A stretch of 64,000 nt of DNA from Phoronis australis (taxonomy: Eukaryota > Animalia > Phoronida), in the NCBI GenBank assembly GCA_002633005.1, contig NMRA01000098.1, forward strand, positions 433,435 to 497,434, read 5' to 3'. A program made the position numbers and the translations under genes. This document shows, in pieces, positions 18,401 through 63,361 of this stretch. The notes under the pieces are model-generated. The model saw nothing but the letters and a program-made list of their open reading frames with translations, was not told the origin of the DNA and made no database searches. Position 1 is the stretch's first letter. The number at the start of each line of letters is the position of its first letter.

Positions 18401-21400
18401 TAAAACCTAATTTCAACCTGGGACACTAGAGAACAAACCAGGACTGCTAATACTGGTTATGCGCTTTGATCTAGAATTAAGGTCAATCAGGAAAGTAAAC
18501 TATCCAGAACCCAAGTCCCATCTTCAGCACATGTAACATGGAACAAACACACTTGTAATTAATTCACATAGCCATGGAGGTGGATGCAGCCTATCCTAGC
18601 CACCCATTTCATGTGAAATATTTTTTCCGGATTCTTTTGACACCGTGAACAAAATTATACACAAGTTTGCTCCATTTCAGATGGATGTGCAGACTATTAT
18701 AGATCAATGATTTTCATAACAGGAAGATACAAGGAGCAAATGCAGAACTTTGGCATAATGTGAGTGGAGTATAACAGGCCATATTAAGATGCACATATTT
18801 CAAAAGAACACACAACAAGTCTATCTGTCCTCTTACTTTGTACATAATTGTATAGAATTAGGTTATACATATTTGTTTATTACAAACATCAAAATAATGA
18901 CACGACTTGGACCTCTTACCAAGCTTGAGAGAAGAAAACGTTTTTCAAAAAGTTCGTGGGGAAGATGTTTTTTGTTTGACAGATGTGCCTTACCTGAGCA
19001 TATTTTTCCATCGCCATAGAAACCTTTCTTGCATGTGCACCTGTATGATCCGTGTGTATTTTCACAACGAGCGTTTTTATCACATGGTATCATCAAGCAC
19101 TCCAGGGTGTCTGTTGGAGAATACGAGGAAAATAGGAAAACAATGACAGCAAAATGTTCACAAATATAAAACACCAACTGTTTACAAGAAAGTCCAGAGA
19201 CAGGTGAATATTTCATTAAGTCTTTCATACATCCATCATCTCACATGCATACGGACGGAAGACAAACAGTCCTGAGATATTACAGTTTCTTGGCCGTTTC
19301 AACCTAAACCCTCCAATGCATTTAAAAATAATAAAGCCCTTGAACCACACAGCATATGTTTCCCACCTTTGCTACTCATAATAATACAATGTCTATATAA
19401 AATGCAGTTACCAACATAGCCTTTTTGTAAAGCAGTATATTAAATATACAGCTTTGTACTGATGTGGGTAAAAAACTGGCCAAATAAAATTTGACACAAA
19501 AGTAGTGTCATTAAAACTACACTCTTCCTTGAGTTAACTAAATTACTTACTGGTGTTGGAAAAATTAGCATTCTACCATTATTCTGTGGAGCAATCTTTT
19601 GCGTCGGCTTTTGGCGCCATGAAATATTGCATCACCTATCGGCCAGTTTCATTTTTCGTCGATTCGTCAATCAACTTTCTTCATCCACGAGGTTGTGTAC
19701 ATGTCACAACAAATTATCGCAACTGATTTCATTTCATTACAAGTTTTTAGTATTTTAATACCAGCAAACCAAATTTCAGAACAAATTTTGCTGCTGAGAA
19801 GCTGACATCACCTCCCGAGAGATTTTGCAGAAAATTTAGGAAATGGTGCGTGCGCGTGTCACGAGTGTAATGTTTTCAAAACGACGAGACTTTTCTTTGT
19901 TAAAAAAGGTGGAAAATAATGCAATAAAGTCGTTTATTAGATTGTTTTTCACTTGAACGGCTGCAACGGGCAAGGCCAGTGTCAGTTTACCAGATTTTGC
20001 ATGCAGTCCTCAGCAAGTTGTTAGCTCTACATGTTGATATAAGTTTCACGACAAGTGACGATCAGAACTACCTGGGCTGTGTGAAATTCTGGGGTCTAAC
20101 GGAGTGCAACACACAGTGGTACCTAGCTGTATTTTGACGACAGTCTTCATACAGCTAGCTGGCTGGCTGTTACCAGCCCTCCCTGACCCTTCACCCCAGA
20201 CTCCAATCTTCACCTCCATGATATCTCACATTTACTGCTGAAAATGCAACGATGTCTATACCTCAAGTAGCTATCAACTCCTTCACCCTTGACCCTTCAC
20301 ACTTGACCCCTGGCCCTTCACCCCTGACCTCAATCTTCACCATTCTCACCTGTGCACTTGTTACCACTGTAAAGCCTGAACCCCCTGGTGCAAACACATC
20401 TACCAGTTTGCTGGTCACACCCTTGTTCGCAGTTCGTACAGTTTGACGGCTCACTGGTACTGGATAAATAGGCGTTCTTCACATCTGAAGAGACAAACAA
20501 GGCTATTAATTCATATACATCTTGTTGCCATTATAACTGTTGTAGTTGCATCACCTACTATAATATAAACTATGCAAAACTTTAAAGTTAAAACAACCCT
20601 CAGGTGTGCCAATCATACCAGGATAAAAACTCGGTAAAAAGCATTCTTAATTGTACATACCATAAACCTTAGCGTCGAAGTCTGGCACTTTATTTGTGAA
20701 TTCAGCACTGGCGTTAGCGTTGAGATACACTTCTGATCCACTGTTAACAGCGAACCCTGCTGGTAGGAAGACGGTGATGTGAACTTGTGGAGGTGACACA
20801 ACAGATTGACTGTAAACTCCACTAGCCAGGCAAATCACTGCCGAGAGGACACTGATCATAGCCAGATGGGAACTGGAAAATATGGGCATCAGGTGAACAA
20901 TTCCACAATTAGAGTGTATGGACAGATATGCTACAAATTCATAAACCAAGCTGCATGACCCAAAGCCAGCAAATCAACCCAAAACTACTGAACAGCATTT
21001 GCAAATTTGCTTGAGCGTGCCAAACGAGCACCTAATATATAAATAAATTCCAAAGTTTTTGGAGGCATCGGGTCCAAAGATACAACAAGATTCAAGAAAA
21101 GAGCAGAAAGGTTGCTGAGCAATTATCTCTGAGGACTTCAGTTCAAACAAATTATGTCGACACCATAGTACACGTGAATTTTTTTCCATGAATGTACAGT
21201 ACAGCAACTCACTTAGGAGCTCCTCCGTTATGTTTCCCATGATGCCTTGCTGTGCCCTTCTTGTTGTTGTTCTCCGGCTCCAGCTCGTTGCTGTGTCCAT
21301 GTGTAATGGCGGTCTCATAGCCATCATCCAGCGGACTATCGGGACTGTCGCCACGACTGGCGCGGCGATCGTTCACCCCAACCTTGCCAGCCTCCACCAC

Positions 21401-24400
21401 GGTGACTGCACTACTGTTTGTGCTACTGCGTGTGCTGACCTGGCCAATGAAATCAGACAATCGACGTTTCCTTAAAGATGATTTTCATCAACATTTCTAG
21501 GTTACTAAAAGTGTACGCTGGCCATTAGCTCATCTCGAGTGTACATTTTGTGAGTTGAAAACGCTGAAAATTCGGTAGACATGCAAACCGATTTCGTTAA
21601 ATTCACTGACCACAAAAACGTGTGTAAACATCAAAAAATCCACATGTAGCACTGGGAAAGAAGTTATAATGAGCAGAAACAGAATTTCAAATATCAGAAT
21701 TTTCAATAATGGTGGCTATTAATTGCATTAATCATGCAAATTTTATCATGCAACAACCTACAAATGGTTTCATTTAGAAACAAGAAACATGGGGGCAAAT
21801 ATCAATATAATTAGCCTGTAGTGCCTGATATCAGTAAGCACAAGTAGAATTTTTAATCATGGGTGCTTTAATTTGCATAATCTATGAAAATTCTCGCCAA
21901 CATAGCTCCATTAAATTCACTGACCAAGGGTGAAAACATCAACATAATCTAACTGCAGTGCTTGGTGAGGAAGTTAAAAGGAAAAATAAATTTTTGCATA
22001 ATGGTAGTCTTAATTTGCATGAATATTTTAAAAAATGCTCAAGGTTGTCACAAGCCAGCTAAAATGATTCATGGGTAGTACCACCAAACACTTGTGGGTA
22101 CCCCGGGCTACTGGACAATTAAGGCTATCTTAACATTTAAAAGATAATGAACATGTAACTGAATTGAAACCTTATCTTACTTGGAAACAAGTGAAATCTC
22201 TTTTCATTAAAGTATGAAGCACCAATTAAAAGGAATGCATTGTCATTCTTAAGTTGCATACCATAGCAACCATTAGACGATGTTTAGAGACATTGCGGGC
22301 ATTCACCATTCCCTTCATAAAACACTTCAACCATGAGAAGGACCAATTTACTGCCAATTACTTTTGCTATAATTAGTGAAATTCTTCTGTTGAAACTATC
22401 TTCCTTTCCCTTCGCATACCTCCTAACTCCCATCCAATCCCATCCCACATTCCTTCCCAGTTCAAACCCTTTATCGCCCGACCACTCTGGCTCCTGACCT
22501 TGCAACTCGACTCAGTCCCTGCTCTCTCACATCATATTTCCTTCCTCATCACCTCAACAACCTATACTCTCTCACCGTCCTTCCATCCCAATGCCCTGTC
22601 CCCTGTTCCCATATCTCCTCTCTCCCCATGCTGAAGCCCCATCACCCTACCATTCCAAACCACCACCTGCCTATTCTAAATCTTTTTTCCGATCCCAAAG
22701 CTGTCACACACCTCCTGCCTTATTCCACCTCCACCTCTCACTCACCGATTCTCCATCGCCACTTTGTAGGGGACGTGTCAAATTCTGGAGAGATTTTGGC
22801 GAGAAAATATCAGATTGAAATCCGTCTGGAGGTGGTAACGGCCAATCTTCTTCATCACCTTGTGACACACGGTTGGGTTTAAGCGGAGAGAACGTTGAAA
22901 GTTTTGTGTCGACTTTCCTCGGTAAACTGTTTTGTTGGAGTTGGAGAGTGAACGGAGCGCCAAAGTCTGAATGACGGTCTTCATCATGCTCGTTACTGAT
23001 TGGCTCAGGCAGTGGAGGCGGGGGGATGTTCCATTCTGTGTCATCCTGAGAACTGTTACCACTAGCCCTCTTACGCTCAGGGAAATCTGAAACACCGGTG
23101 AGGCATGAAATTCAGTTAACCAAGTCAACTAACGATAGACCCATGAAGTAAACTTACCACTAGAGGCTCGACCAGTTTCACAGCACTTAGCTTGTATTTC
23201 ATCCACTGATTAGTATAAGGACCTGCTGTCATCAGGAGGCCTATTTAGCAGGGAATTTGAAAAATAGCCTCGTGTGTAGTAAAGCAATTTCTGTATTAGC
23301 GACGACTCCACGGTATTAAAGCAATGGATAATATAAATTGATGTACCGTCGACCAAAACTTGTGATTTTTTAACTGTTTGGCTACTGAAATTGAATTACT
23401 CATAAAAAGCTAAGCTCATATATTTTTTTTGCAAAGAAATACAATAAAAGCCAAAATAGATGCGTTAGGTTTTGGTTCTCTGGTACTCGATGATGAACAG
23501 TTTCAGTAACTTTTTGAATCATGGTAGATAATTAGCCTGTGAGTTGTGATGGCAAAAAACATGAGAATGCTTAACACTGGGCTAGATTACATAATAGCTG
23601 GACTGAATGCGCTGTTATCTGAATTTGATACAAAACGGGGAATTTTTGTAATGTACAGGAAACAAAGCGTGATTAAATTTTGTTAATTTTAAATCTGTGG
23701 CTGAATATATTACCAAATTTCCTTTATACCATTTTGAACCTGAAGTCACACTACAACCTATCGTGAACACAGAGCCCATTAAATGTTTTGATTTAAAGAA
23801 GTATAGAATAATGTGAAATCATAACAGATGCTTACAGTTGGTATATTTATTTAAAACGGCATAAACGTTAAGGGCACTGGCAAACACAGCTCCCTTCAGG
23901 TGTGCTGTCTGCATTTTCTGTCATTTCACACTGAGGAAGGGCCAGTAACGTCTGTGACTTTTTAAAATGAATTTACTGTCTTTTGATTTACACCATTTTA
24001 CATCATTTGATGTTAGTTTTTACTATTTTATGAGGTCAAGAACTGTTTTTTGATCTTAATCTGTAATAATAAAATACTCATGACAAAACATGGGTCTGCT
24101 AAAATGAGTTCACACCATGTGTAAAGTTACTATTCCACAAACAATTTTAGCAGCAGACAACAAAATGTTACCATTCAGTGGCGCCCTCTCTCCACTGGTA
24201 TTCAGTGTATCAGCCATAGCTGTAGTGCCGTATCCTGAAACACTTGATTTAGCCTCATCTCCACTTGAAACACCAGTGCCTAAATGATATTGTCATTTTC
24301 ATTTAACTCTCTTTTGAAGAAGATCAAAATACGTCATTTTCCAATAATTGCATGTAAAATCTTTTGGTTGAATAATAGCCAATTACCAATTTATTCTGCA

Positions 24401-33400: not shown

Positions 33401-36400
33401 TGTGATACAGTATGGCTGACAAGTAAAATTTAATTTACACATTTTTCCAAGCAACATAAGTAGCACACAGTAAAATCTATTTCCATGTTCAAGTTTTGGA
33501 CCACAGCTACCAACAAACAAAGTTTTGAAAAACTGTAGGCATTCACAACAATGTTCAAATGACAGTTACGTCACTTTTTTACCAAAAATGGCAAGAATTT
33601 AGAGAAACTTTGCCAAATGTTGCGTTAAGACATCCAAAATATAGAGACATTGCAACTGGATGAAGGAAGTTCATTGCTTAACTGATAGCTGGATTTAGCC
33701 TCAATTTTGAAACTACTGTCGTCTGGAGTTAAAACCAAATAAGAAATTTCAGTAATGTTTTCAAAAGTCAAATCTGAATGGAGTCATTGAACCTGAATGA
33801 TAAGTCAGTAGTGAGGTACATCTCGTTAACACCTGCACGACCATACTTTGTTTCTAATACATGGCCACATCTGATACATGGCCATATATCCGAAGACTTG
33901 GGTGATTTTGCATTTTTGCGACTTTTGTTGCACCAATGTAATGCAGCCCGGACGCATGTAACAAGTCACCATTGCAGTCATTAGTCACAATATATAAGTC
34001 CACCAATCATTACTAGTCACTGGTATTATGTGACCCCTCATCACTGGAAGCATGATCCCACGTCTGACCACTCACTACTTGGTGCATTGGTCTCAGGTTA
34101 TTGGTCATGACAGGAGTCAGGGATATGGGCAATAGTCACCTACAGTGGCCCCAGATTCAGAGAACCAGTTTGCTGCCTGTTATTCAGAAGAGAAAAGTGG
34201 TTCTCAAAATGTGGGTTATGTGCCCGTCTTGGTACTATTGGTGTATTCAATAGTTTCTTTGCTCCACAATCCACTCACCTCTCAGACTCGGCCCAGCAGT
34301 GGCCAAGTTGATGTTGAACTTGCGTTTCTTGTGCCAGCAGTGAATAGCGATGCCAGTGGCAAGAAGAGAGATGAAACAAGCCAGTAGCACGAACAGAAGG
34401 AGGTTACTTAAGGTTGCATCGGGGTCAGCAGCGCCACCTTGGAACTACAACGATCGAGAAACATACGAGTCTATGAAAGTTTTGTGCTGTGTCAACTTCT
34501 GTCTTGTAAGTGGTTTTTACTCAACAATAAGTGTATTAGTGGTCATTGTGCATCAGCCACAAACGCGACCTTAAAAAGTCGGCCTGTTCTGACCAATTGG
34601 TCAGTTATTTTATTGAGAGCTATTTTGGGACGGGGCGCAATTGGCTTATTAGGCCAAAAATAAAGCCTATAAATCACAATCTGATCACAGCATTGTCACC
34701 ATACACGATTACGTGTGATTTTATATGACTGTTGAGAAATATAGTAATAAAAACAGCCAACCCTTGACATTGTGCGAAACGGTATGTCCCAAGATAATAG
34801 TCATATCGGCTAAACGGAGCTCAATATACTACGGTAGTACGGCATATGTTAGCTACACTGAGAACAAGTGGGGTTTCAATTATTAAAAAGAAGATAATGT
34901 CAAAGTGATGCAAAAAGCCTAACAGACAATTATCTGATGTCTGAAGCAGAGAATGTTAGCAAAACACATACCACTTCACACTAAGTACATGTAAATATCA
35001 AATATGCATGTTATAAGTATTAATGACAAGTTAGTCAAGACAAAACTCTTATAATAGACACATGTACAGAGAAAATACATTAGAACAACATAAGAAAATT
35101 TCAAGGTACAATGTTTATACCTTGCATGCCATTGTAATGTGAGTCCGGAAGCTTTGTAATTCAGAACCAAAATCTCAGTTAAGTCAGAACCAACAACAAA
35201 AAACAGAACTTTTCCTTAACTTAAATGGCGCCCCACTTTTCTTTATCGCTTGCCAGAATGCATTTTTGGCCCATATCCAATGTTTTCAGTTCCCAAGCCA
35301 ATTAGAAGAGGAAGGCTCACAATACAATTCCCTCACATTTTCGTAAATGTTTTTTGTAAATGTAACGGAAAACATGCATCAGCAACGAGAACTAATATGT
35401 CTACTCACAACCTAATGTTACTATAGTTACTACTTCATGCACATATACGAATATGTTTAGATTAGTAAAACCTTCTTATTTCCAGCATTAATTAACCAGG
35501 TATTTCAAGCACAGTGTTACATAATCACGATGTGTAAACCATTACCACTACAAAATTCCATTAGTGTTACACAAACCAACTGCAACAAGAAAATCACAAG
35601 CCATTCATGCTGGATATCTTGAAGCCTCTTACACCAATAATTAGGTCAGTTGAACTGGATAATTAGGTCAGTTGAAGTCATCAACTTCAAAGCAGAATAC
35701 ATCAAGTGTAGGGCAGCCAAACTGGCCTCAGAGGCTAATCAATGAACTCCATTAGATAGATTAAGATGAAGTGAAATAAGGATGCGATAAGGCCGCAGGA
35801 AAAACATTTTTTTTTCAGTGCTGCCTAAGGCTTTGATTAAATAGTCAAATCTTAGTCCACACTGACAGCATTCTAGTTTAATGTCAAGCGACGCATTGGT
35901 TTTTGTCCCCCACATATTTGACAGCCACTTAATCCTCTACTATGCCTTCAAGTTCGACTGGACCTTCAAGGACGATCTTTTTTCAACTGACCCCAAATTT
36001 AGCCCAATCAAATACAAAATTTGACGATAACACACAAGCGTGCATTTCGACTAGGCATTAAATAACCCCCCCATGCACAAGAAACAATACACCCAGGGTA
36101 GTGACAGACTAAGCTCCCAGGCAGTGAAAGAATGTCCACAAGATTTAAGCAGTAGACATTTCACAGCTTGCTGCACCAGAAGGGTATATTACTAGTTGTC
36201 ATATTCTATACGAATCCTTAAGATGGCTTCATTTTTAGAACGATCAGATACACCTAGTGGTAGAACTGTACTTCACCAATAGATTTGTAAAGTACCGCTG
36301 GCATTATTTTTATCAGGAACGTTAATCTAAGGTGCTTTTGTTTGTAGAAGAACAATTACCACACAGAAATTGGACACTAGCTAAAATAAATTGATATATG

Positions 36401-39400
36401 GACTAAAACCGGTTATTTTTCTGTTAAGTTTCTGCAGTTGCATTCCTCACAAAAATTGGGAACAAATACATTAAAAGCAAGCTAAAATGAATGCGTTAGG
36501 TTTCCGTTCTCTAATATCCGTTCATGAAGTAACCATTTGTTGTTAGCCTAACTCTTTAAACCGTGCTAGATAACTGGTCTACAAGTCAAGATAACCAACA
36601 AAACACTGTGAGGAGACTCAACAATGGACTAGATTAATATCTGCATTTGCGTCGATTTGGAAACCACTATCGTCCGAAGTTGAAATCGAATGAAAGGTTT
36701 TCGTAATGGAATCAGTGGCATGCTAGAAGAGTGTTGGGAACGACCATTTGTTTTGAAATAACTGTTAACTCCAGTTACGCTGTTGCAACGAAAAACAAAA
36801 CATTTTGTTTATGTAAAGGTCAGTTAGTAGCCAATTGAAAATGGGTAAAAAATTGGAAAAGTTGCTTATGGTAACATCATTTAGAAAATTCCAAATGAGT
36901 GTCCTCACTGCACAGTGGACACCCCTGCTGTTTAGGCACCTAACTACAAGAAATACATTAGAATTCTAGATCAATTTCATCAACCAAAAATGCTACATCA
37001 AGATACAGAATTACTTCATTTTAATATCATCTTATTTGTGATACATAATGAGGATGCAAGGTAAAAATAAACTTAATAACTTTTACTTCCATCATTGTGT
37101 ATGAAGTGTGGACAGTTATAAGCCAAACTCAAGTTGAGAACTACATTAGAATTGGAGAGTTACTTGCACACTGTTAACAAATTAGCATACAAGCAAAGAG
37201 CGATTAAGTTTTTAGTTGTGGGACAAAACATATTCGGTCATTCCTATTGACTCGACTTCATTCATTAAGTCATTAATGAGGTATGACATCTAAATAGGCA
37301 GTAAGAAGTGACAAACAGACAGACAGACAGGGACTTGTAGTGAGTCTTACCAACGAGTTAACAAACACAGGATCAACCTGTGGCGCATCTTGGTACTGAA
37401 ACACGACAGAGTGTCACATTTGCATTCACACAACACGTGATTAAGCCGACGAATTTCCCGGGATCTTTTCTCTGGGTGATGGACGGGGCGACAATGTTGC
37501 CACCCATCCCAAGGCGATGCCAAGGCAATACGTGTGCATACAGGTACAACAGACATAATAGTGAGTTGCATGAAAACATTCCCAACTGAACACTAGGACT
37601 AAATACCTAGCCCAGGCCATTGTCCCACAAAGCTAAACAGTCCACCCCAGACAATATCAATGCCACATTATGGTAATTCTCCACTTATTTCGCACAAAAG
37701 TAATTGCCAAGGCCGATTACTTTTTTACAAACGATGCAAACTTTACAAAACAGCGTTTCACGGTGTCTACACAGTACAGACCATGTAATAGACTGAATTT
37801 TCTTCAAATTAATTTTAGTGGAGAAATTTGACAAAGTATAATTTCACTTGTTGGCCATACTGCATGCTAAATTCTATGAAGAGTTACCCTAGTCACCCAA
37901 GATTACACACTTGGGGCAAATTACCAATCCCAGATGATGGCTTGACCTCACCAACACTTGCATATGAGACCCTTCTGGAAAAAAATTACTCCCAACATCG
38001 CACAGGCGATAAATACAAAATATGATTTAATAACTGACATAATCCAAGCATTGCGTGGCTGTTGACGCCATGGCGATGGTTAGATGTCTGTCTCTGTTCT
38101 AGACAACGTCAAACCTGGGTTATGATAAAACATATAAAGCAGTGCAACTTGTGCAACGCCATTCACACGTTTCAAAAATCTGCTGCCCAGCAATTTGTTT
38201 CTATGGTAACGGAATCGTGAAGTTCAACACAATTTCTCAAGCAAGATACTGATATGTGTCAATTAAGTTTTATGCTCAATTATAAATGTGTGAAAATTGT
38301 GATTCATAAAAAATAATGATGATAAACAAGACATGCAAAGTGTACTTTCTGCAACAGATTGAGAAATTGATGAACAGAATAAACGCATTTTCTACCAAAA
38401 GAATAAAACAGGTTCTGATTTTTAAAAATGTATGCATGGCACAAACCAAATCACCTATTTGCCTACAATACGGGTGCGGTGCAAATGTAGCGCGTATTCA
38501 TACACTGAAAGTAGTGCTGAGTGATCATTAGGGTAGTTCTAAACTCATCAAGGGAATAATTAAAGGCTTTCGCTCAGTAGATTTTGTATCACTAGATGAA
38601 CCATGTAAACAAAACAACTCTGACACAGCACATTGCTTATCAAGTTCCTTAGAAATGCATAAAGAGGAAATATGGACAGCAATTGTGCAATTTTCTGCAA
38701 ACGAACCAATGTGTAAAATTTCCATAAGGTTTTGAATCATTATCATCACAACTTAAATCAGTTGTAGATGACGTCATTGAGGCCCATCTGGAATTATGAA
38801 CAAAATCTGCTGGTAGAAAGTCTTCATCACACTTCAGGGATGGGAAGCGGTGGTGGGATACATACCACCTGCAACAGCACTTGCTCATTGTAAGTCTTGT
38901 ACGAGTGCTTGATGGTTGATAACTGCTCCACAGAGGGCGCTGAGACATTGATCAAGATGGCAAAGTCTGTTGCCTCCACAAATGACACGGAGCCCTGAAA
39001 AAATAAATAGTTGCAATTTGGCAGAACAACCACACGACAATAAAACGCCTAAACACTTGAGATATGTTTTTTCAGGACAAAACGTATTCAGTTATACAAC
39101 TGGTCTCCAATAGGGTCCTGATAAGAAACTAAATATTAACAGTCAAGTTAACAAGATGGTATAAGAAGAATTTAAAGAAAACGTTCTAACGTTAACAAGA
39201 AATTTGACACAAATAAGTGAAAGACAATACAATCAAAAATAGCAAAATCATCCTGTTGAGATTACAGAATTTTAGGAAGTCTTCATTTTATTACAAATAC
39301 AAAATTCAAAGTTACAGTGGATATTTGATGTGGACAAAACGGAACTAAATGCAGAGAAAGCAATCAATTTAATAACCAGGAAAACGACTACAGGAAATAC

Positions 39401-48400: not shown

Positions 48401-51400
48401 GACAAGCTAAGGGATGTTTTAAATCAGTTTGTGATGGCCATCAAAATAAGTTGCAAAATAAAACAACTGAACACTTTCTGTTTTCTGTAGTCGACATGCA
48501 CTTCATACAGGTTGTTTTAGACCACTTAATTCTTATTTTAATTTACTCTGGTAAGTTAGCATTAGCGCAGCTGTATAAAATATACAACTTAGGACCCAGA
48601 TGGGTAAAAAACTGGTCAAATAAGATCTGACACAAAATAAATGACACTAAAATCTATGATCTTGCTTGAGTAAAAAAAAATAATTACCAGTGCTAAAAAT
48701 TTGCTGTTCTACGATTACTCTGCTGCTAAACCTGTGCAACGATCAACTGCTTCCGCTTTTAGCACTAATAGAACATCACCTATTGGCTAATATCTTTTTG
48801 ACTCTTCAATCAACTGTTCTTCTTCAACAGGGTTGCATACATTTCACAACAAATAACCGCAATCAGTTTCATTTCATTTAAGTTTTTTAGTATTTTACTA
48901 CCACCTAACCAAATTTCTGAGCAAATTTTGCTTCAGCAAAGCTGTCATCATCTCCAAAAAGATGTCACAAAAAGTTTAGCGAATGGTGTGTACCACTAAC
49001 ACTGTTTTCAAGTCGACACACAGAGTTTTTTTGTTGCAAAAGCTGGAGAATAATGTTCATTATATTCATTTAAACAGTTATGAAATGCAAGATGAGTGTC
49101 GATTGACTCCGTTCCCAGATTTTGCATGGACCCTGTCTGGTCGATAGTTCTACATGTTGATATAGAGTTCATGACAAGGAAGTCAGCAGAACTACGTGGC
49201 CAGTGTGATATTGTGAGCTCTATGTGAAGTTGATTTCTAGCCTTGCATTTTGATATTAGTCTTCATACAACAAACTGGCTGCCTACTTTGAATTGGTACA
49301 GTTTTGACACCCCAATAGCAGTCAAAGTAACCCTAAGGTATATTGCAGCCATGGTAGTTAAAGAAACATTGTATTCAGAATATGAAATTTCATAATCATT
49401 TTCAAAAGTCTATTTCATATGGCAAAAGTTTAAAAGTTGGGCTTTTCAATATTTGAGTGTAGCGCACTTTGTAGGGTAAGCCTTGTCAGCAGGAATTACA
49501 CATCAAATAATCAATCACACAAAATTTAATTTTCGAGTGGTCTAACAGAAATCCGTTAAAGTAAGTTAAAGTAAGCAAAACGTATAGGCAGAGACAAAAT
49601 TAAGAACACTATATTGATTCTGTGATGCAAATGTCAAATGTTGCTGAAAGAAAGCTTAATCACGAAAAATTTTCAAACCACTTAATGGAATTGATCCCAA
49701 TTGCAGACTTAAAAACTTGATACCCTGTCAAAATGGTGATGCAGTGTTTAGCCAATTTGCTCCATTCATTACAGGATATTGACTGATGTTACAGGGATAT
49801 GTTTGAGGAAGTGATTTAATACTGAAATTTGGTCTCACACTCTACACATTTCTGAAAATTTATTAAATCTCACTGGAGAAAAAGTGCAAAGTCTCAGAGA
49901 ATCAATATATAACTGCTAGTCACAGAGAAATTTTCTACAAATTATTCCTAGACTCTGAGGCGCTCATTACTTGGCTAAACCTTTTTGCGAATTGGGAGCG
50001 TAAGACAAAATTTGCACTTTCATGAAACGTCTTAGCCTTACCTGCCCTGCACTGCATTCTATAGACCTAAGTTACTTAAGAGAAAAAAAGCTTTTATCTG
50101 ATCACCTGCTTCACTTGCAATGCATGTTGTTTTCTTGTAGACTTGTGTGATTTTACTTTTTCTTGAGTTTATGGAATGGAATGCAGATACAAGCCTGCTA
50201 CATGAATTGCATTAAGGACTGTCCTGATGGTTGTTATGGTTACGTAAGACTCTAGAAAAATGCCCAAATTTGACTAAGTCCAGAACAGCATATCTCGGTA
50301 ATGTTTGATTGCATTCACATGAAGATATCCGATACTACACTGTACTTTATGTACAGTTCTTCAAAACGCTGTTAGAAATTATATTTTTGAAAATAATGTT
50401 ACAATTATGTACAAGCTATAAAAATAGGGGCTATAATGACTTTGTGAAAATTTAAAATTCTGTAAATGAGATTATAGTTTAAGAAGCTGTAACGTATTTC
50501 TTGCGAGTTCATCTTGAACTTTTATATCAAACGAAATTTGGCCATGATGTTGATGTAGTTGTTCCGCTCGTTGGTTTGTGCATTTCTGTTTTGCTAAATT
50601 CTACGGTCACGTGACCTAAAATGGCAAATTGGCATCAAGGCTTCCTACTTTCAGTAAATATATATGTGTGCTGAGTTAAAATCTATGATTTGTAGATATT
50701 TGGCTAATACACAAAGTTGTGGATTAGGGCTTACACAATGAGGATGGTGTGGCCCTGCAATGACAAATTCAGAATAAATCATAACTTTAAAGCTGGTTAT
50801 TGAATAGCCACACCACCATTTTATTTTCTGTCCATCCATATAGTAATTTGACCCACGGCAAAGTCTAGGATTCAAAAGCTGTCCAGTGTGACTGGTATGA
50901 GTGAGATAGATTGGTCAACATGGTTAGCCAATGCAAACAGCTGTAACTAAATATGAGGAAACATTCATTGTGATGGGACAAAACAACTGGACAGGAATGA
51001 AACACGTACTCTGAATATTGATCTGTTTTTATATACTTTGGTGCCACAGTATCAACAAATGGTCAAAGAAAGGAGTTACTTAGGATGACAGGCTGTGGCC
51101 CTTTACGTGCAACTGAACTATTTTTTGACACTACGCATGGACATAGATATTTTCATAAGAGAATCAGGGTTATGATGACCGTTTCTCAGCGAACAGACAA
51201 TAACATCAAACTTGATATATTACCAAAATACAAAACTATACTGAATGAGTAGAAGTTTGCAAGCTGATTTTGCAAGCTGTAAAGGACATGCTTAATGCTC
51301 ATATCCAGTTTCGACAGCAATTTCGCTCCATAAGACATCTTTCACTATTTAGACATAAACCTTGCGTTGTTGGAAATATTTTATACCAAAGTCAATCCTC

Positions 51401-54400
51401 ATTTACCAGCAACTTTTCGGACGATGCAACGCCAAAAATATCCAATCAACGTTTCATGAAGATGGCGTTCTTCACTGTCACGGTTTGAGTCAATTAGCCA
51501 CTCAATAATTCTGATTTTCTCAATTAACATGTCATTAGACAACAAATAAACAGCTTACTTTATTGATGTGTCAATTAGTATTCTGTGATATAACTATCTT
51601 GGAGTTGCTGTAGCAACATTGCTAATGATGGCAAAAGCAGCACTGAAAACATGGAATCTAGATCAGCATAAATACACCAATAGAGGGCTCTCCACATTCA
51701 ACAATAGTAAATATTATATTCAAGGACCAGCTGTCTGTCACTCACTTAAATATGGTACCCATCCCACACTGCCACAAATTTCCCCACCAGCAAAACCACT
51801 TCTGTAGTAAAACAAACTGGTGAACCATCACCACTGATGAGGCTTCCCTCAGAGTCCTTGCTGACAGTTAAACAACACAGCAACTGGAAAACTAAAATGT
51901 TTGTAAACACCAGCAAACACATGTTGCATAAGACAGTGTTTAAGCCCTATCAGAGAGCTTGTTGTGTACCCTTTACAGTTGGCAAGATTCAGTTTGTGTT
52001 GGCTCTTCATGGCAATACTCTGATTATGGGAAATATACCTAAAGTGTCACTGGTGTGAACCATGAGCACACCACAGCTAACATGAATACCATTGTCTTTC
52101 ATGGAAGGTTTGATAGCAGAATTTCATTTCAAATAACCGGTGTTATCAGAATCATGTCCGCCTCANCTTTATGTACAGTTCTCCAAAACGCTGTTAGAAA
52201 TTATATTTTTGAAAATAATGTTACAATTATGTACAAGCTATAAAAATAGGGGCTATAATGACTTTGTAAAAATTTAAAATTCTGTAAATGAGATTATAGT
52301 TTAAGAAGCTGTAAAATATTTCTTGCGAGTTCATCTTGAACTTTTATATCAAATGAAATTTGGCCATGATGTTGATGTAGTTGTTCCGCTCGTTGGATTA
52401 AACATTTCTGTTTTGCTAAATTCTACGGTCACGTGACCTAAAATGGCAAACTGGCATCAAGTCAAAAATCGAATTCTTCAGGTTTCCTACTTTCAGTAAA
52501 TATATATGTGTGCTGAGTTAAAATCTATAGTTTTGTAGATATTTGGCTAATAAACAAAGTAGTTGTGGATAAGGTGTTACACAATGAGGACGGTGTGGCT
52601 CTGCAATGACAAATTCAGAATAAATCATAACTTTAAAGCTGGTTATTGAATAGCCACACCACCATTTTATTTTCTGTCCATCCATATAGTAATTTGACCC
52701 ACGGCAAAGTCTAGGATTCAAAAGCTGTCCAATGTGACTGGTATGAGTGAGATAGATTGGTCAACATGGTTAGCCAATGCAAACAGTTGTAACTAAATAT
52801 GAGGAAACATTCATTGTGATGGGACAAAACAACTGGACAGGAATGAAACACATACTCTGAATATTGATCTGTTTTTATATACTTTGGTGTCACAGTATCA
52901 ACAAATGGTCAAAGAAAGGAGTTACTTAGGATGACAGGCTGTGGCCCTTTACGTACAACTGAACTATTTTTTGACACTACGCATGGACATAGATATTTTC
53001 ATAAGAGAATCAGGGTTATAATGACCGTTTCTCAATGAACAGACAATAACATCGAACTTGATATACCAAAATACAAAACTATACTGAATGAGTAGAAGTT
53101 TGCAAGCTGATTTTGCAAGCTGTAAAGGACATGCTTAATGCTCATATCAAGTTTCGACAGCAATTTCGCTCCATAAGACTTCTTTCACTATTTAGACATA
53201 AACCTTGCGTTGTTGGAAATATTTATACCAAAGTCAATCCTCATTTACCAGCAACTTTTCAGACGATGCAACGCCAAAAATATCCAATCAACGTTTCGTG
53301 AAGATGGCGTTCTTCACTGTCACGGTTTGAGTCAATTAGCCACTCAATAATTCTGATTTTCTCAATTAACATGTCATTAGACAACAAATAAACAGCTTAC
53401 TTTATTGATGTGTCAATTAGTATTCTGTGATATAACTATCTTGGAGTTGCTGTAGCAACATTGCTAATGATGGCAAAAGCAGCACTGAAAACATGGAATC
53501 TAGATCAGCATAAATACACCAATAGAGGGCTCTCCACATTCAACAATAGTAAATATTATATTCAAGGACCAGCTGTCTGTCACTCACTTAAATATGGTAC
53601 CCATCCCACACTGCCACAAATTTCCCCACCAGCAAAACCACTTCTGTAGTAAAACAAACTGGTGAACCATCACCACTGATGAGGCTTCCCTCAGAGTCCT
53701 TGCTGACAGTTAAACAACACAGCAACTGGAAAACTAAAATGTTTGTAAACACCAGCAAACACATGTTGCATAAGACAGTGTTTAAGCCCTATCAGAGAGC
53801 TTGTTGTGTACCCTTTACAGTTGGCAAGATTCAGTTTGTGTTGGCTCTTCATGGCAATACTCTGATTATGGGAAATATACCTAAAGTGTCACTGGTGTGA
53901 ACCATGAGCACACCACAGCTAACATGAATACCATTGTCTTTCATGGAAGGTTTGATAGCAGAATTTCATTTCAAATAACCGGTGTTATCAGAATCATGTC
54001 CGCCTCAACAATTATTTGGCAGCAAAGGAAACTTGGCCAGAGTCTAAATTTTGAGCTCAAACTCTACTCAGACTCAAAATTAAACCCATCACATTGACGG
54101 TTCCAGTACAAATTTATAAGTTTACTTAAAGCATGCAATGCAATCGGTCAATTTTCAAGTCAAATTTTGAGTATAGTAATTGAACCCCTGGTCCTGGATC
54201 TTACGTGATAAAAATTGACAACAATGGAAATTAAATTGGCAAGTAAGTGTTCTTGATTCAATACCTTCACTTCTAAAATAACATTAGTAATCAAACAAGA
54301 CTTTTTCATTCACTGCACTGTGGTCTCACTCGCATCAACACTACGGCTGCAGATCTGCCTGTCAACACACCTTTCTTTTTATCACATCTAAAATTCATGA

Positions 54401-56604
54401 AAAGCTAGTTAGAGTTCAAAAATAACCATGGGAGAAAATTGAGTAGTCATCCACGCAGGTGTTGGCAAATGCCATAATGAATAGGTGACTGACCACATTT
54501 TCCTTACCAGAGGAGTTCTTAATGTACTGGCTTCATGATCAAATCAGCTGTAGGTATATGGTAGTTTCTTCAAATTAGAACGCAGTACAGTGAAACAGCA
54601 AAATTTTATTTTACCAAAATATTCTACACTAGTGAACAAGAAGACATTTTTATTTGACAATTTGAAAACTTTATACAGTGTGGCTGTCGTCAACAAACAC
54701 AAGATGAAATTTTGATCATTTTTGGCAATAAAGTAAGTGTTCGAAAAATAAAAAAATAAAAATTTTAGCCATTCTTTTTGTTCAAATTCGAGGAAAATAC
54801 ACTGTACGTGGAATTCAGAACGAAGCAGTTCTACACCAAGATATTTGCATTAGATAATCACTAGGCTGGCTCCACAAGTCACAATTAGGAGATCGAAAGC
54901 ACAATTACCCAGCATTTTTAGACTGTTGGCTCCAATCACCTAATTTCCCTATCACTTTATCTAACCACAGTGGGGGTAGATCAGTTCAAAGCTCTTTTCA
55001 AATGCATCCACTCTGTCCACATCAATGCGTCTGTGTACACAAAATCTACTTCACCAGTCGGGACACTAAATCAAACTTGTGCGATAAAAATTTCCATAAA
55101 AATAACAGCCATAACCGAAGTTAGCGAACTGGACAAATAAGAAAGACAAACAAAAACACAGTTCATTCTGTAGTAGTCAACACTATTCACTGGTGTTCAA
55201 ATGTTCTTTCTTCAAAAACCACTGACGTTGCAATGGAATGAACCAAATGTACACAGAAAGGGAGGCTAAGTGTATGTTCTAGGATATGATTCTTTCTCCT
55301 CCATTGAACTGGTGTAAATCTGCAAAGATAATAATTTTCCATGCGGCTGCGGCTTAGTGCACGAAGCTAAGCTACTATAGCTTAATTTAGAACAAATAGC
55401 TGGCTTACAGCAACCAAACAGTAAATAGAGCCAATGGTACATTAATGCCTAAGACCTATAGTTTTCCTTGGATCAAATATGCAATAATTGATTGCTATGG
55501 CTGGGCAATCCAATAGTTTTTATTGAGCTGGAAGTTCAGCTCTGAAGCATTGTTGATTAGGTTAAGCGCAACGGTAATTGTATATCTACAGGTAAAAAAT
55601 GTCACATGTTCAACCCTCTTCGAGTGGTAACATGACCTTAAAACAACAGACCTTTTTCCATGTTGGAGGGTAAAGTAAATATTTCGTTAGGAAATCAGCT
55701 GGGTGACCCTGTTTCACAGTCCCAGTGTTTTAGGCTACAATAAACTGAACCAGGACCTGATACTGGAGGTACTTAAAGGGTAATTTGAGATAAAAGTTGA
55801 GTTAAATACAATGCACAAAACCCTTAACTTAAGACTCGAAAGACTAGAGATTTCGACATAGAAATTTGAAAACACACTGCAAACGAGTTAGAGAAACCTA
55901 ACAGACACCTACCCACAGATAACAGTGCATGGGAAATGCAAATTCTACATTATTCAGAATTTTGAGACATGTTATTTCTACTATAAACTTCATATGTACA
56001 AGTCCACACAGGTCATTTCTCTCACTTAAACTGGTCGAGTTTGACAACGATCATTTGCTCTTTATTTATGAACTGAATTTTGCAAATTCTGAAGCAGGTT
56101 ATGACAGAAAGTAATTTCATCCAGGCCACCCACAAGGAAAAGAGTGTCAAAAAGCTTTCAAGTCTGGCAGGGGTTGTCAGCCTGTTCAGTTTTATATCAA
56201 TTGCTGTTTATTTTGCACAGCCCTTCTGTCGATAAAAACCAATTGCTATCATGGCGATAAAATTTTCTTGAATATTTTTGATCAGCACATTTAGCGATTT
56301 TCTTGTTTTGGTTATAAGTTTGATGGCATGAAAGCCCTTCGTGAATCATTAAACATCTTCTTACATGCACTTCAGATGTTTAAATCGCAAAGAACACAAA
56401 AAAATCACTGAGTGTTTTTAATTTGAATGCAGAAAGATTTTGAAATTATGAGTAACATACCTGGAAGGTGGATCTGATGTTGAACTTTACAGGGGTTCTA
56501 GATTCATCAGGAAGACTTCTGTACAGCGTCACATGTCCCACAGCATCACAGACATCAAGAAGCCAAAGTGGTGACAGGAAAACTATGAACCTCACCAGAA
56601 ACAT
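336..56604 (-). CDS. Multi-exon gene (27 coding exons, ~1,550 aa, 3'-incomplete): astrotactin-N-like hairpin membrane protein with EGF, cbEGF, TNFR-Cys repeats and a C-terminal multi-pass region
   Basis: Manually joined exons 56461-56604, 38866-38994, 37351-37395, 34279-34444, 26930-27036, 25274-25499, 24172-24279, 22746-23086, 21213-21439, 20661-20872, 20350-20484, 18994-19110, 17015-17080, 13441-13590, 12624-12761, 12006-12178, 11499-11743, 10430-10639, 9904-10110, 9026-9240, 8207-8521 (or 6534-6848), 5010-5261, 3061-3213, 2345-2483, 1186-1372, 703-839, 336-457. All have AG/GT boundaries with matching intron phases and give one open frame. The last two exons are less certain. Confidence 0.85.
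703..839 (-). CDS. Possible coding exon 26 (IQMDMIFHPTQYLPGHHQFLLLSTISHHPALQPSRKNPPETVYLR)
   Basis: gcattctag acceptor and weak gtaaag donor. Phase 0-2 bridges exons 25 and 27, but the protein evidence is weak. Confidence 0.35.
1186..1372 (-). CDS. Coding exon 25: amphipathic helical segment (ESFMKLSHYPAY...QEMQRQNDVSNANKERCQLFMGKLQELALQ)
   Basis: ctattccag acceptor, CAG|gtaatg donor, phase 2-0. Confidence 0.82.
2063..2330. repeat. 29-bp minisatellite (CACCAGACCCAACCACTAACACATAGCTT)n, ~9 copies
   Basis: Direct tandem copies in the intron immediately after the TM4 exon donor. Confidence 0.95.
2345..2483 (-). CDS. Coding exon 24: TM4 (DAYPLPSESKLKWGVLLTLFYSVFWTAYSLLMTFTVFILLWGAINR)
   Basis: ccatttcag acceptor, AG|gtttgt donor, phase 1-2, ~30-aa hydrophobic run. 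Confidence 0.82.
3061..3213 (-). CDS. Coding exon 23: TM3 (ISLTFIVSVCGFVLLFVILWTLGYL)
   Basis: gttttgccag acceptor, G|gtgagt donor, phase 1-1. Confidence 0.85.
5010..5261 (-). CDS. Coding exon 22 (GFVHLQLHDDTYPTEPIYNYDLGIDCPKEFTMQF...IVAGKWRKS)
   Basis: tttccaccatcag acceptor, gtaaga donor, phase 1-1. Confidence 0.82.
6534..6848 (-). CDS. Coding exon 21, copy B (protein-identical duplicate, probably an allelic assembly duplicate)
   Basis: Identical translation to 8207-8521. Lies in the 1.7 kb duplication whose junction is a single N. Confidence 0.6.
8207..8521 (-). CDS. Coding exon 21, copy A (QEGSSEEKIANLTISDSL...WSIQVSAMIESCP)
   Basis: ttttttctcag acceptor, G|gtatgc donor, phase 1-1, 315 nt. 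Confidence 0.85.
9026..9240 (-). CDS. Coding exon 20 (EGIFELELRTGLDRIPDVVKG...YVRPLKPFSVNTQSW)
   Basis: atatgcag acceptor, gtaagt donor, phase 2-1. Confidence 0.85.
9904..10110 (-). CDS. Coding exon 19 (CRRGSIAEFVLRPIPPYEKTKFTCHVQP...HIVTRRSR)
   Basis: tactgcag acceptor, AG|gtaaaa donor, phase 2-2. Confidence 0.85.
10430..10639 (-). CDS. Coding exon 18: unassigned Cys-rich module (CARDNANCDACVKTCS...CFDCCVETNCTYICRNYNKGDCLPVR)
   Basis: ctcatccag acceptor, gtgaga donor, phase 2-2, 11 Cys. Confidence 0.88.
11499..11743 (-). CDS. Coding exon 17 (PVDGDVLIGQDK...KTILVEPLP)
   Basis: AAG acceptor after ttttccttgtg, gtaagt donor, phase 0-2 matching both neighbours. Confidence 0.7.
12006..12178 (-). 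CDS. Coding exon 16 (GTGLEISITMEKLNILPSF...RYCPYPIPDMYQLTVVRHN)
   Basis: ctgttgctag acceptor, gtaagt donor, phase 1-0. Confidence 0.85.
12624..12761 (-). CDS. Coding exon 15 (KDLLSSGKPSANVVVEDRRLLHRDNVFSVYYSHSTVKSGQYHIKR)
   Basis: tttctttaag acceptor, G|gtaggg donor, phase 1-1. Confidence 0.8.
13441..13590 (-). CDS. Coding exon 14: TNFR/NGFR-type cysteine-rich repeats (ECKEFCPPESYITSYCDEAEDILCTACEAKCTPDKFEFSPCTNHTDRECK)
   Basis: Two CxxxxY/FxxxxCxxxxDxxC units, ttttcaacag/gtatgg boundaries, phase 1-1. Confidence 0.9.
17015..17080 (-). CDS. Coding exon 13: short Cys-rich TNFR-like module (ACQNTCPTGHFRARPCPDKLCQ)
   Basis: tgtttcag acceptor, G|gtgtgt donor, phase 1-1. Confidence 0.75.
18994..19110 (-). 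CDS. Coding exon 12: calcium-binding EGF domain ([39 protein letters not shown])
   Basis: Canonical DxxEC...CxNTxGSYxCxCxxGFxGDGxxC, phase 1-1, ccaacag/gtaagg boundaries. Confidence 0.95.
19464..20168 (+). repeat. Dispersed ~700-bp repeat, copy 1
   Basis: Collinear similarity with 48600-49283 (tgggtaaaaaactgg.caaataa...cttcataca..ctggct). Confidence 0.8.
20350..20484 (-). CDS. Coding exon 11: EGF-like domain (CTNCEQGCDQQTGRCVCTRGFRLYSGNKCT)
   Basis: ctcttcag acceptor, G|gtgaga donor, phase 1-1, six Cys with CxCxxGF. Confidence 0.9.
20661..20872 (-). CDS. Coding exon 10: TM2/internal signal-like segment (HLAMISVLSAVICLASGVYS) plus beta segment (QSVVSPPQVHITVFLPAGFAVNSGSEVYLNANA...)
   Basis: attttccag acceptor, G|gtatgt donor, phase 2-1. 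Confidence 0.85.
21213..21439 (-). CDS. Coding exon 9, end of cytosolic loop (VSTRSSTNSS...HGKHNGGAP)
   Basis: ttggccag acceptor, AA|gtgagt donor, phase 0-2. Confidence 0.8.
22746..23086 (-). CDS. Coding exon 8, cytosolic loop with acidic-W-polyproline motifs (DDTEWNIPPPPLP, DEEDWPLPPP)
   Basis: gtgtttcag acceptor, TCG|gtgagt donor, phase 1-0, open for 113 codons in a different frame from the ORF-track call. Confidence 0.8.
23330..23660 (+). repeat. Dispersed repeat fragment, second copy at ~36385-36706
   Basis: Shared blocks ataaattgat, aaaat..atgcgttaggttt..gttctct, tagataa, ctagatta. Confidence 0.6.
24172..24279 (-). CDS. Coding exon 7, cytosolic loop (GTGVSSGDEAKSSVSGYGTTAMADTLNTSGERAPLN)
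   Basis: catttag acceptor, G|gtaaca donor, phase 1-1. Confidence 0.7.
25274..25499 (-). CDS. Coding exon 6, cytosolic loop with polybasic tract (SSQQSSLKNKKKKKKRPSFNSGESSTEEED...)
   Basis: ttttgttcacag acceptor, G|gtttgt donor, phase 0-1. Confidence 0.75.
26930..27036 (-). CDS. Coding exon 5, cytosolic loop (DESRAPLMDQPETVNSLPNGSVPGRSATSSSTTTSK)
   Basis: cctgttacag acceptor, AAG|gtagga donor, phase 1-0. Confidence 0.75.
30079..30141. repeat. ~60-bp hairpin mini-repeat (GAGAACCAGTTT...AAACTGGTTCTC), further copies at ~15759-15815 and ~34149-34211
   Basis: Three diverged copies share the loop sequence gatgcct.ttattcag. Confidence 0.75.
32549..32659. repeat. Nested inverted repeat (hairpin), likely the end of a repetitive element
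   Basis: Inner arms tggattttgtagaattatcaccc / gggcgataattctctaaaatcca, outer arms agtcgttatcccc / ggggataatgact. Confidence 0.6.
34279..34444 (-). CDS. Coding exon 4: TM1 (LLLFVLLACFISLLATGIAI) followed by basic stop-transfer HKKRK
   Basis: ttgtag acceptor, G|gtgagt donor, phase 0-1. Translation FQGGAADPDATLSNLLLFVLLACFISLLATGIAIHCWHKKRKFNINLATAGPSLR. Confidence 0.85.
37351..37395 (-). CDS. Coding exon 3 (YQDAPQVDPVFVNSL)
   Basis: gtgtttcag acceptor, gtaaga donor, phase 0-0. LLQVYQDAP resembles astrotactin LLFHIHHQDGAP (recalled from memory). Confidence 0.7.
38866..38994 (-). CDS. Coding exon 2 (GSVSFVEATDFAILINVSAPSVEQLSTIKHSYKTYNEQVLLQV)
   Basis: Strong tttttcag acceptor, gtatgt donor, phase 0-0. 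An alternative donor 3 nt earlier is possible. Confidence 0.8.
40781..41288. mobile_element. MITE-like non-autonomous DNA transposon (possibly PIF/Harbinger type)
   Basis: Termini gggcctttcat / atgaaagggcc, internal repeated cagtatgaac and ttaactccggtc motifs, TAA on the left flank. Right TSD not clean. Confidence 0.55.
41391..41811. mobile_element. MITE-like element with ~50-bp imperfect terminal inverted repeats
   Basis: Left end gtgccgtttacacatcaaaagttgacacgg... matches the reverse complement of the right end, gtcccgtttagacatcaagttttggcccgg.... Internal gtaaacgg/tgacac repeats. Confidence 0.7.
48600..49283 (+). repeat. Dispersed ~700-bp repeat, copy 2
   Basis: Diverged copy of 19464-20168 in the same orientation. 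Confidence 0.8.
50345..54007. repeat. ~1.8 kb tandem near-duplication (50345-52165 / 52167-54007) joined by a single N
   Basis: Near-identical copies with the N at 52166 at the junction. Intronic. Confidence 0.95.
56461..56604 (-). CDS. Coding exon 1: signal peptide plus start of luminal domain (MFLVRFIVFLSPLWLLDVCDA|VGHVTLYRSLPDESRTPVKFNIRSTFQ)
   Basis: Acceptor ttttgtag (exon starts 56621), hydrophobic N-terminus with small-residue cleavage site, donor CAG|gtatgt phase 0, in-frame stop upstream in the 5' UTR exon. Confidence 0.8.
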
Positions 56605-57292: not shown

Positions 57293-57490
57293 ATGACGCG
57301 AATTCTTACGAAGAGGATTTTTATTTCAATCATCTTAGTAAAATTTCTCGTCTGCTTTTCCCACGCTGGGTCGGAAAAATGTGAAAGGCTGCGCAACTTA
57401 CTCAAATATGAAAATCTTGCTGAAAAGGATCGCAAGGCATTGGGAGCTACTTCTAATGAAATTGAGATTCATGTTCGACAAAATGTTAAG
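57293..57490 (+). CDS. Plus-strand gene exon 1: signal peptide protein (MTRILTKRIFISIILVKFLVCFSHA|GSEKCERLR...EIEIHVRQNVK), astrotactin-N-like
   Basis: aaaATG context, n/h/c signal peptide, perfect donor AAG|gtaagt, phase 0. Confidence 0.8.
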
Positions 57491-57626: not shown

Positions 57627-57797
57627 GGACGGATCAATGTTACAAGAACTCTGGGTACAACAAACGACGTAACCACTAAAGTCAACTGGAGTTTCCCACA
57701 TTCACTGGATTATAAAAATCTGTTAAAAGCCAACTTTAACGTTTCATCTGTGTTGAGTTTAGGAGGGACAGTTTATACAGTCTATACTATTCAGTTG
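57627..57797 (+). CDS. Plus-strand gene exon 2 (GRINVTRTLGTTNDVTTKVNWSFPHSLDYKNLLKANFNVSSVLSLGGTVYTVYTIQL)
   Basis: tttcttttcag acceptor, gtgagt donor, phase 0-0, three N-glycosylation sequons (NVT, NWS, NVS). No further exon confidently found before 64000. Confidence 0.8.
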
Positions 57798-62611: not shown

Positions 62612-63179
62612 AAATCTGAGCGCTATAATCGACTTTAAATGATTGGCATGGGTCTGTAGCACACATATTTTGATGACTGCATGGGACTGTTTAACCTGGG
62701 ATTATCTACTCTTTTCGTGTACTTCTATATGTCTATGACCAGACTTATGACACCTCTGTTTACTTAATACCTTGGTGTGCTATGTGAAATACTTTCAAGT
62801 AAATTCATGATACTGGTTAACATTTTTTATCTAGCATGGTGATAGTACCTCGCTTTTCATTTCAATCTTTGTATCATGTCTGTTGTTATTGTAAGTCAAC
62901 TTTGTCGAGTTCAAAATGTGAATTTTCATAAGTCTTGATATAAATGTCTTGCAATAAACGGCTACCAATTTATGCTACAGGTTTTTCAACCGTTACTTTT
63001 ATTCAATTTTTATGTAGTATTATTTTGTTCCAGTGGCAGGAAGGAAAATATGCTTAATCATGAATTTTCCCTTTAAACCATCTGCAGAACAACATTGTTC
63101 TTTCTACAGAACATTTCTGACAATCGTTGTCGTCAATTTGTGTCATGAACATTGTTACCGTATTTATTGCTTGCATTGA

Positions 63180-63361
63180 ACTGCAATAGCATTCTGAATA
63201 TGATAAATGTATTGGACTGCAATAGCATTCTGAATATGATAAATGTATTGGACTGCAATAGCATTCTGAATATGATAAATGTATTGGACTGCAATAGCAT
63301 TCTGAATATGATAAATGTATTGGACTGCAATAGCATTCTGAATATGATAAATGTATTGGAC
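63180..63361. repeat. 36-bp minisatellite (CTGCAATAGCATTCTGAATATGATAAATGTATTGGA) x5
   Basis: Five perfect head-to-tail copies with no spacers. Confidence 0.95.

Follow-up and report, generated by a model that had tools for sequence, protein, structure and literature searches.

A probable homologue of the astrotactin hairpin module heads a predicted multi-pass membrane protein with EGF and TNFR-type repeats in Phoronis australis

Results

A minus-strand gene of at least 1,444 codons

The window, by which we mean the whole stretch of 64,000 nucleotides analyzed here (GC content 35-43%), carries a minus-strand gene whose start codon, an ATG, lies at 56604. We modelled this gene with 24 exons that give 1,444 stop-free codons, and all 23 introns are GT-AG. 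Because the model ends at a GT donor without a stop, the gene extends past the window; between 1185 and the window end at position 1 no further exon is evident. The features of the gene, with residue numbers of the product, are as follows.

56461..56604, minus strand: exon 1, residues 1-48; predicted signal peptide (1-19/21; hydropathy 1.98) and first luminal strand; ATG, GT donor, phase 0
38866..38994, minus strand: exon 2, residues 49-91; predicted luminal N-terminal domain; joint to 34444 with 6 reads; 2 of 2 variants synonymous
37351..37395, minus strand: candidate in-frame cassette exon of 45 nt; AG/GT borders, open frame; skipped in reads
34279..34444, minus strand: exon 3, residues 92-146; TM1 (107-125; hydropathy 2.74) and basic stop-transfer motif HKKRK; both joints read-backed
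27036-26930, 25499-25274, 24279-24172, 23086-22746 and 21439-21213, minus strand: exons 4-8, residues 147-482; predicted disordered cytosolic loop; all joints read-backed
20661..20872, minus strand: exon 9, residues 483-553; signal-peptide-like TM2 (486-504; hydropathy 1.99) and post-TM2 strand; joints with 14 and 17 reads
20350..20484, minus strand: exon 10, residues 554-598; first EGF-like module, six-Cys pattern (Pfam EGF_2 only at E 0.52); 17-read joint to exon 9
18994..19110, minus strand: exon 11, residues 599-637; second EGF, of the calcium-binding type (Pfam EGF_3, E 1.8e-12); joint to 17080 with 3 reads
17080-17015 and 13590-13441, minus strand: exons 12-13, residues 638-709; TNFR-type cysteine-rich repeats (Pfam TNFR_c6, E 1.1e-4); joint between them taken from phase
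12761-12624, 12178-12006, about 11713-11499 and 10639-10430, minus strand: exons 14-17; start of a predicted luminal region of about 590 residues
10110-9904, 9240-9026, 8521-8207 and 5261-5010, minus strand: exons 18-21; rest of that region
3213-3061 and 2483-2345, minus strand: exons 22-23; TM3 (1309-1327; hydropathy 2.83) and TM4 (1358-1376; hydropathy 1.81), a short second hairpin; joints read-backed
1186..1372, minus strand: exon 24; polar segment, helix-like; GT donor at its end; joint with 7 reads and one contig

RNA evidence came from three raw-read runs and one contig set with the same species label, mapped on 19150-39100 and 620-20560, with about 18-19% of each raw run used. Among the joints listed, at least 16 of the 23 modelled introns are backed by RNA-seq. 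Eight of them follow one another in a row, all minus-strand GT-AG, and lead from the luminal exon through TM1, a loop of 357 residues and TM2 to the first EGF: 38866>34444 (6 reads), 34279>27036 (7 reads), 26930>25499 (11 reads), 25274>24279 (9 reads), 24172>23086 (10 reads), 22746>21439 (11 reads), 21213>20872 (14 reads), and 20661>20484 (17 reads). The earlier note on this DNA had staked its reading on the upstream exons being spliced to what follows, and the 14 reads at 21213>20872 join them to the TM2 exon. The eight other read-backed introns lie downstream: 18994>17080 (3 reads), 11499>10639, 10430>10110, 9904>9240, 8207>5261, 5010>3213, 3061>2483, and 2345>1372 (7 reads and one contig). 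The joint between exons 1 and 2 (56461>38994) we infer from phase 0-0 and an unbroken frame, and for exon 16 the acceptor was chosen from two that keep the frame. In intron 1, additional exons of phase 0 were rejected, the only candidate lying within a duplicated block.

Six downstream joints, including the one from exon 10 to exon 11, are absent among the joints listed and were taken from matching phases. Such a gap could mean that two genes are present, of which one comprises the two-helix hairpin (TM1, loop and TM2) with a single EGF and ends separately, while the remaining EGF, TNFR and TM3-TM4 exons belong to another transcript. We consider this division extremely unlikely, since the phases are 1-1 at every such joint, a GT donor rather than a stop closes exon 10, exon 11 has neither a start nor a signal, reads cover both parts to a similar depth and on the same strand, and five further joints exist beyond those listed. 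We therefore continue with a single transcript.

In the luminal domain, the read-supported form differs from the product that had been proposed. The earlier note had read VLLQVYQDAP in the protein, of which the YQDAP part needs the 45-nt exon at 37395-37351; the sole listed joint across this place, 38866>34444 with its 6 reads, skips that exon, and no inclusion joint is found among those listed. Because of this skipping, the luminal domain has about 85 residues rather than the roughly 100 once assigned to it, and reads VLLQV followed directly by FQGG.

Among the exonic read variants listed, 24 of 28 are synonymous, whereas for transitions a share of 34% would be expected (p = 2.4e-8); in the exons of the disordered loop the count is six of seven. 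The gene is transcribed at a low level, spliced, and under purifying selection, and its product, with 1,444 or more residues, is a predicted multi-pass membrane protein.

Several features surround or interrupt the gene. Two pairs of tandem blocks (5547-7252/7254-8925 and 50345-52165/52167-54007) are 95% and 97% identical, respectively, and each pair is split by a single N; they probably reflect overlaps in the assembly where the scaffold has gaps. In the first pair, exon 20 occurs twice (8521-8207 and 6848-6534), with reads that fit both copies, and a tandem duplication of this exon as a matter of biology was rejected on account of its location at a scaffold N. On the plus strand, a divergent gene (57293-57490 and 57627-57797) starts about 690 bp from the ATG at 56604; it has two phase-0 exons and a signal-peptide-like start, and gave no Pfam match under E 0.02. 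Interspersed short repeats within introns (20108-20168 and 10868-11007) have hundreds of RNA reads from both strands mapped to them with a partial fit, and minisatellites with periods of about 29, 36, and 15 nt lie at 2062-2328, 63172-63361, and 1-180.

Domain anatomy of the predicted product

Five segments of the product exceed a Kyte-Doolittle hydropathy of 1.8, the threshold that we used for hydrophobic segments (residues 1-19, 107-125, 486-504, 1309-1327, and 1358-1376). From hydropathy, residues 22-106 are predicted to face the lumen and residues 128-485 the cytosol, with TM2 at 486-504. The basic motif HKKRK sits at 129, just after TM1 (107-125), and the 357-residue loop contains 60% disorder-promoting residues, a run of lysines at 192, and two motifs of the form W..PPP at 312 and 375. 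In hydrophobicity, TM2 is as weak as the N-terminal signal (1.99 versus 1.98; TM1 has 2.74). Small residues stand at its end, where six sites fit the loose -3/-1 rule, which is a permissive one. The same helix (20872-20810, minus strand) contains Met488, and the sequence from this residue onward resembles a complete signal peptide; translation beginning at this methionine instead would yield the EGF/TNFR half without the hairpin.

Behind TM2, a strand segment is followed by an EGF at residue 572, a second EGF, TNFR-type repeats, about 590 further residues, TM3-TM4, and a polar segment. Hydropathy and read joints thus bear out the predicted topology that had been described for the first part, namely, signal peptide, luminal domain, TM1 with HKKRK, disordered loop, TM2, strand, and EGF; the product had been taken to end at that EGF, and in our model it goes on through the second EGF and all that follows, past the window. 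The match of the repeats to TNFR_c6 reaches 22.9 bits, under the curated cut-off of 29.4. In the region of about 590 residues (exons 14 to 21), which has a cluster of 12 cysteines and in which four internal joints and the exit joint are read-backed, exon-wise searches gave no Pfam, NCBIfam, or PDB assignment. The second hairpin with its polar segment (3213-1186, minus strand) had no Pfam match either; the helix-like segment after TM4 would be luminal.

There is no cysteine at residues 20-113 or 498-568, so that an inter-fragment disulfide of the astrotactin type is absent. Cys19 would be kept only if the signal peptide were left uncut, and it has no nearby partner before residue 569.

Searches for relatives

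Eight of nine motifs that had been pointed out in this DNA lie where they were placed; six are whole in one frame, and the VLLQ and EGF/TM pieces lie at or over exon edges. The absence of a detectable perforin-type MACPF domain, as had been supposed, holds for the visible 1,444 residues: no exon matches MACPF in Pfam, and the MACPF signature described in PMC5483515 does not occur in the product. Fn(III) and annexin-like domains likewise found no Pfam or PDB match on the exons searched, exon-wise scans being weak for this purpose.

Pfam includes a model of the astrotactin N-terminal region. Neither in Pfam nor in NCBIfam did any astrotactin model match a single-exon piece, a result of little power with pieces of 27 to 70 residues. 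PDB sequence searches with five exons returned nothing under E 0.6 and no astrotactin chain. Protein-database searches with three exons, which covered longer partners of up to 2,000 residues and are weak evidence, gave 60, 104, and 2 candidates, respectively, none of which scored. Atlas searches gave no usable match for either of two exons, and an exact look-up matched none of three sequences. The models that AlphaFold built from single sequences for two of the exon pieces reached pLDDT values of 60.6 and 36.0 and were set aside. A pattern scan of metagenomes let 1 of 247 matches pass, which was rejected as a spurious Cys-repeat protein; this is an unrelated open reading frame of 587 residues with Cys-rich repeats in an AT-rich metagenome contig (L001, 688-2451), whose C-terminal segment is presumably nuclease-like.

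Discussion

Kinship with the astrotactin hairpin

We conclude that the first 600 or so residues probably hold a homologue of the N-terminal hairpin module of astrotactins, a reading based on the layout and on presumed similarity to ASTN1. The ASTN1 segments quoted in the earlier note presumably match ASTN1, and on this assumption the likeness in the luminal domain and behind TM2 is collinear with ASTN1, continues over most of exon 2, and includes a spacing between the strand after TM2 and the first EGF that is nearly equal to that of ASTN1. Four motif matches had been offered in support. One of them loses its YQDAP part together with the skipped exon and keeps VLLQV, and the EGF match is generic, the pattern CD..TG.CVC..GF occurring also in an unrelated EGF protein in the PDB; the other two, along with the order and spacing of the helices, we take to agree with ASTN1.

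Alternatively, the hairpin might be a convergent gene seam, in which a type I membrane protein with a long disordered tail was joined to another gene, the signal peptide of which now serves as TM2, without any relation to astrotactin. It fits this proposal that no more than 4 codons separate the exon 9 acceptor from the start of TM2, that this helix contains Met488 and resembles an ordinary signal peptide, and that all sequence searches for astrotactin remained blank, although blank searches with single exons have little power. A seam would leave unexplained, however, why the presumed similarity lies on both sides of the hairpin, in the luminal strands before TM1 and in the strand after TM2, and why an EGF stands directly behind it. 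We therefore regard a seam as unlikely, and retain homology of the module as our reading.

At the other extreme, the gene could be a true but very diverged astrotactin, with a MACPF domain in the unseen C terminus or with residues 710-1300 as a drifted MACPF/Fn3 cassette. Here one can point to the gene leaving the window, to the segment after TM4 that would be luminal, and to the modest reach of exon-wise scans, which cover only 45 to 104 residues each, and of single-sequence folding (pLDDT 36). Against this, the TNFR repeats occupy the place of the third EGF and the MACPF domain of astrotactins, no MACPF signature was found, TM3 and TM4 do not exist in astrotactins, and ASTN2 keeps 53% identity between human and lamprey (PMC5483515), all of which makes such a divergence very unlikely. 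With no MACPF domain found in the visible 1,444 residues, additional helices, and no bridging cysteine pair, this gene falls outside the astrotactin family, and it is the homology of its front module that we carry forward.

A model for biogenesis and function

As a whole, our explanation comprises homology of the module, a single transcript, absence of a MACPF domain, and cleavage behind TM2, and we hold it to be reasonably likely in this combination. The hairpin module would be joined to EGF modules, TNFR repeats, and a second pair of helices, which would stand in place of the MACPF cassette of astrotactins. Following the rules of ER biogenesis, the signal peptide would open translocation, TM1 with HKKRK would stop the transfer with the positive charge inside, and TM2 would act as an internal signal that restarts it, leaving the loop of 357 residues in the cytosol as a possible docking platform for trafficking or cytoskeletal adaptors.

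In mouse Astn1, residues 22-152 are luminal and residues 174-380 cytosolic, the lumen resumes from 402, and signal peptidase cuts after TM2, at 401/402, leaving fragments that are joined by one disulfide; cleavage after TM2 is described for both mouse paralogues, Astn1 and Astn2 (10.1101/493858). By analogy, and in line with a compatible sequence, signal peptidase probably cuts the phoronid protein near G501-S504. Two subunits would result: the N-terminal hairpin piece would carry the cytosolic loop, and the second, a large ectodomain piece with the EGF and TNFR repeats, would stay anchored in the membrane through TM3 and TM4. The C-terminal piece of astrotactins, in contrast, lacks a helix and is held by the disulfide; the lack of bridging cysteines here would be explained if the TM3/TM4 anchor makes a disulfide tether unneeded. 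The strand after TM2 likely packs on the small luminal N-terminal domain, completing that domain and keeping the pieces together. As a working role, we envisage a surface or endosomal adhesion or trafficking receptor whose loop binds adaptors.

It could also be that the module is homologous and TM2 is never cut, so that the protein is one receptor of four or more passes in which the hairpin is only structural. The missing disulfide, without which separate fragments would lack a bond to hold them, points in this direction, and the N-terminal signal of Astn1 itself escapes cleavage (10.1101/493858), so that predictions from sequence can fail. Nevertheless, TM2 is signal-like in both its hydrophobicity and its c-region, and both mouse paralogues are cut at this place; an uncut TM2 thus seems highly improbable to us, and cleavage remains part of the preferred model.

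Age and novelty of the module

Astrotactins, which are proteins of the brain, are usually derived from the perforin side. They have been termed vertebrate-specific (PMC4892435; 10.1101/493858). Two genes of Branchiostoma floridae are, however, annotated as astrotactin-1 (LOC118421619) and astrotactin-2 (LOC118421140) (PMC11401434), so that a pre-vertebrate origin already stands in the annotation. The proposal that the module predates vertebrates was to this extent anticipated, and what is new is the architecture rather than the age alone. In the openly accessible literature that we searched, no paper on a MACPF-less relative of astrotactins was found.

Given the hairpin layout and the perforin domain not having been found, we consider it likely that the front part of astrotactin is a module of older origin that can be reused. 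It is tempting to go further and to propose, tentatively and at slightly less than even chances, that the hairpin, a split luminal domain closing over two helices with an internal signal peptidase site, is an ancient free-standing module, placed at the front of multi-pass EGF/TNFR receptors that form an undescribed family in invertebrates. Chordate astrotactins would then have arisen by exon shuffling of a MACPF cassette behind the EGFs, with the disulfide replacing a lost TM3/TM4 anchor. If a MACPF-less relative is confirmed, the hairpin and its internal signal peptidase cut would form a separable, older unit, and the protein would offer a natural test of hairpin function without MACPF. Distant sequences would, moreover, help to define key residues in the corresponding region of ASTN1 and ASTN2, which is tied to neurodevelopmental disorders.

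Comparison with known systems

Among known proteins, the TNF receptor superfamily shares the cysteine-rich repeats at residues 638-709. In the phoronid protein, however, these repeats lie within a multi-pass chain and stay below the cut-off, and neither a death domain nor a type I layout is seen. The amphioxus genes (PMC11401434) are non-vertebrate genes with an astrotactin label, cited there for synteny, and are compared here by label alone.

The closest parallel is to ASTN1 and ASTN2, with which the protein shares, in this order, a signal peptide, a small domain in the lumen, TM1, a long loop in the cytosol, a TM2 that resembles a signal, a luminal segment, and EGFs. No known structure matches the N-terminal and cytosolic domains of astrotactins (PMC5483515). 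Within this common order, the luminal N-terminal domain has 85 residues here and 131 in Astn1, whereas the cytosolic loop is longer, with 357 residues compared to about 207. A cysteine pair for the inter-fragment disulfide of astrotactins is missing here. Behind TM2, the three EGFs of astrotactins are followed by MACPF, Fn(III), and annexin-like domains (PMC5483515), while the phoronid protein has two EGFs and then TNFR repeats, its C terminus lying beyond the window. Finally, astrotactins have two internal helices and a C-terminal part that is wholly luminal, whereas the phoronid protein returns to the membrane with TM3 and TM4.
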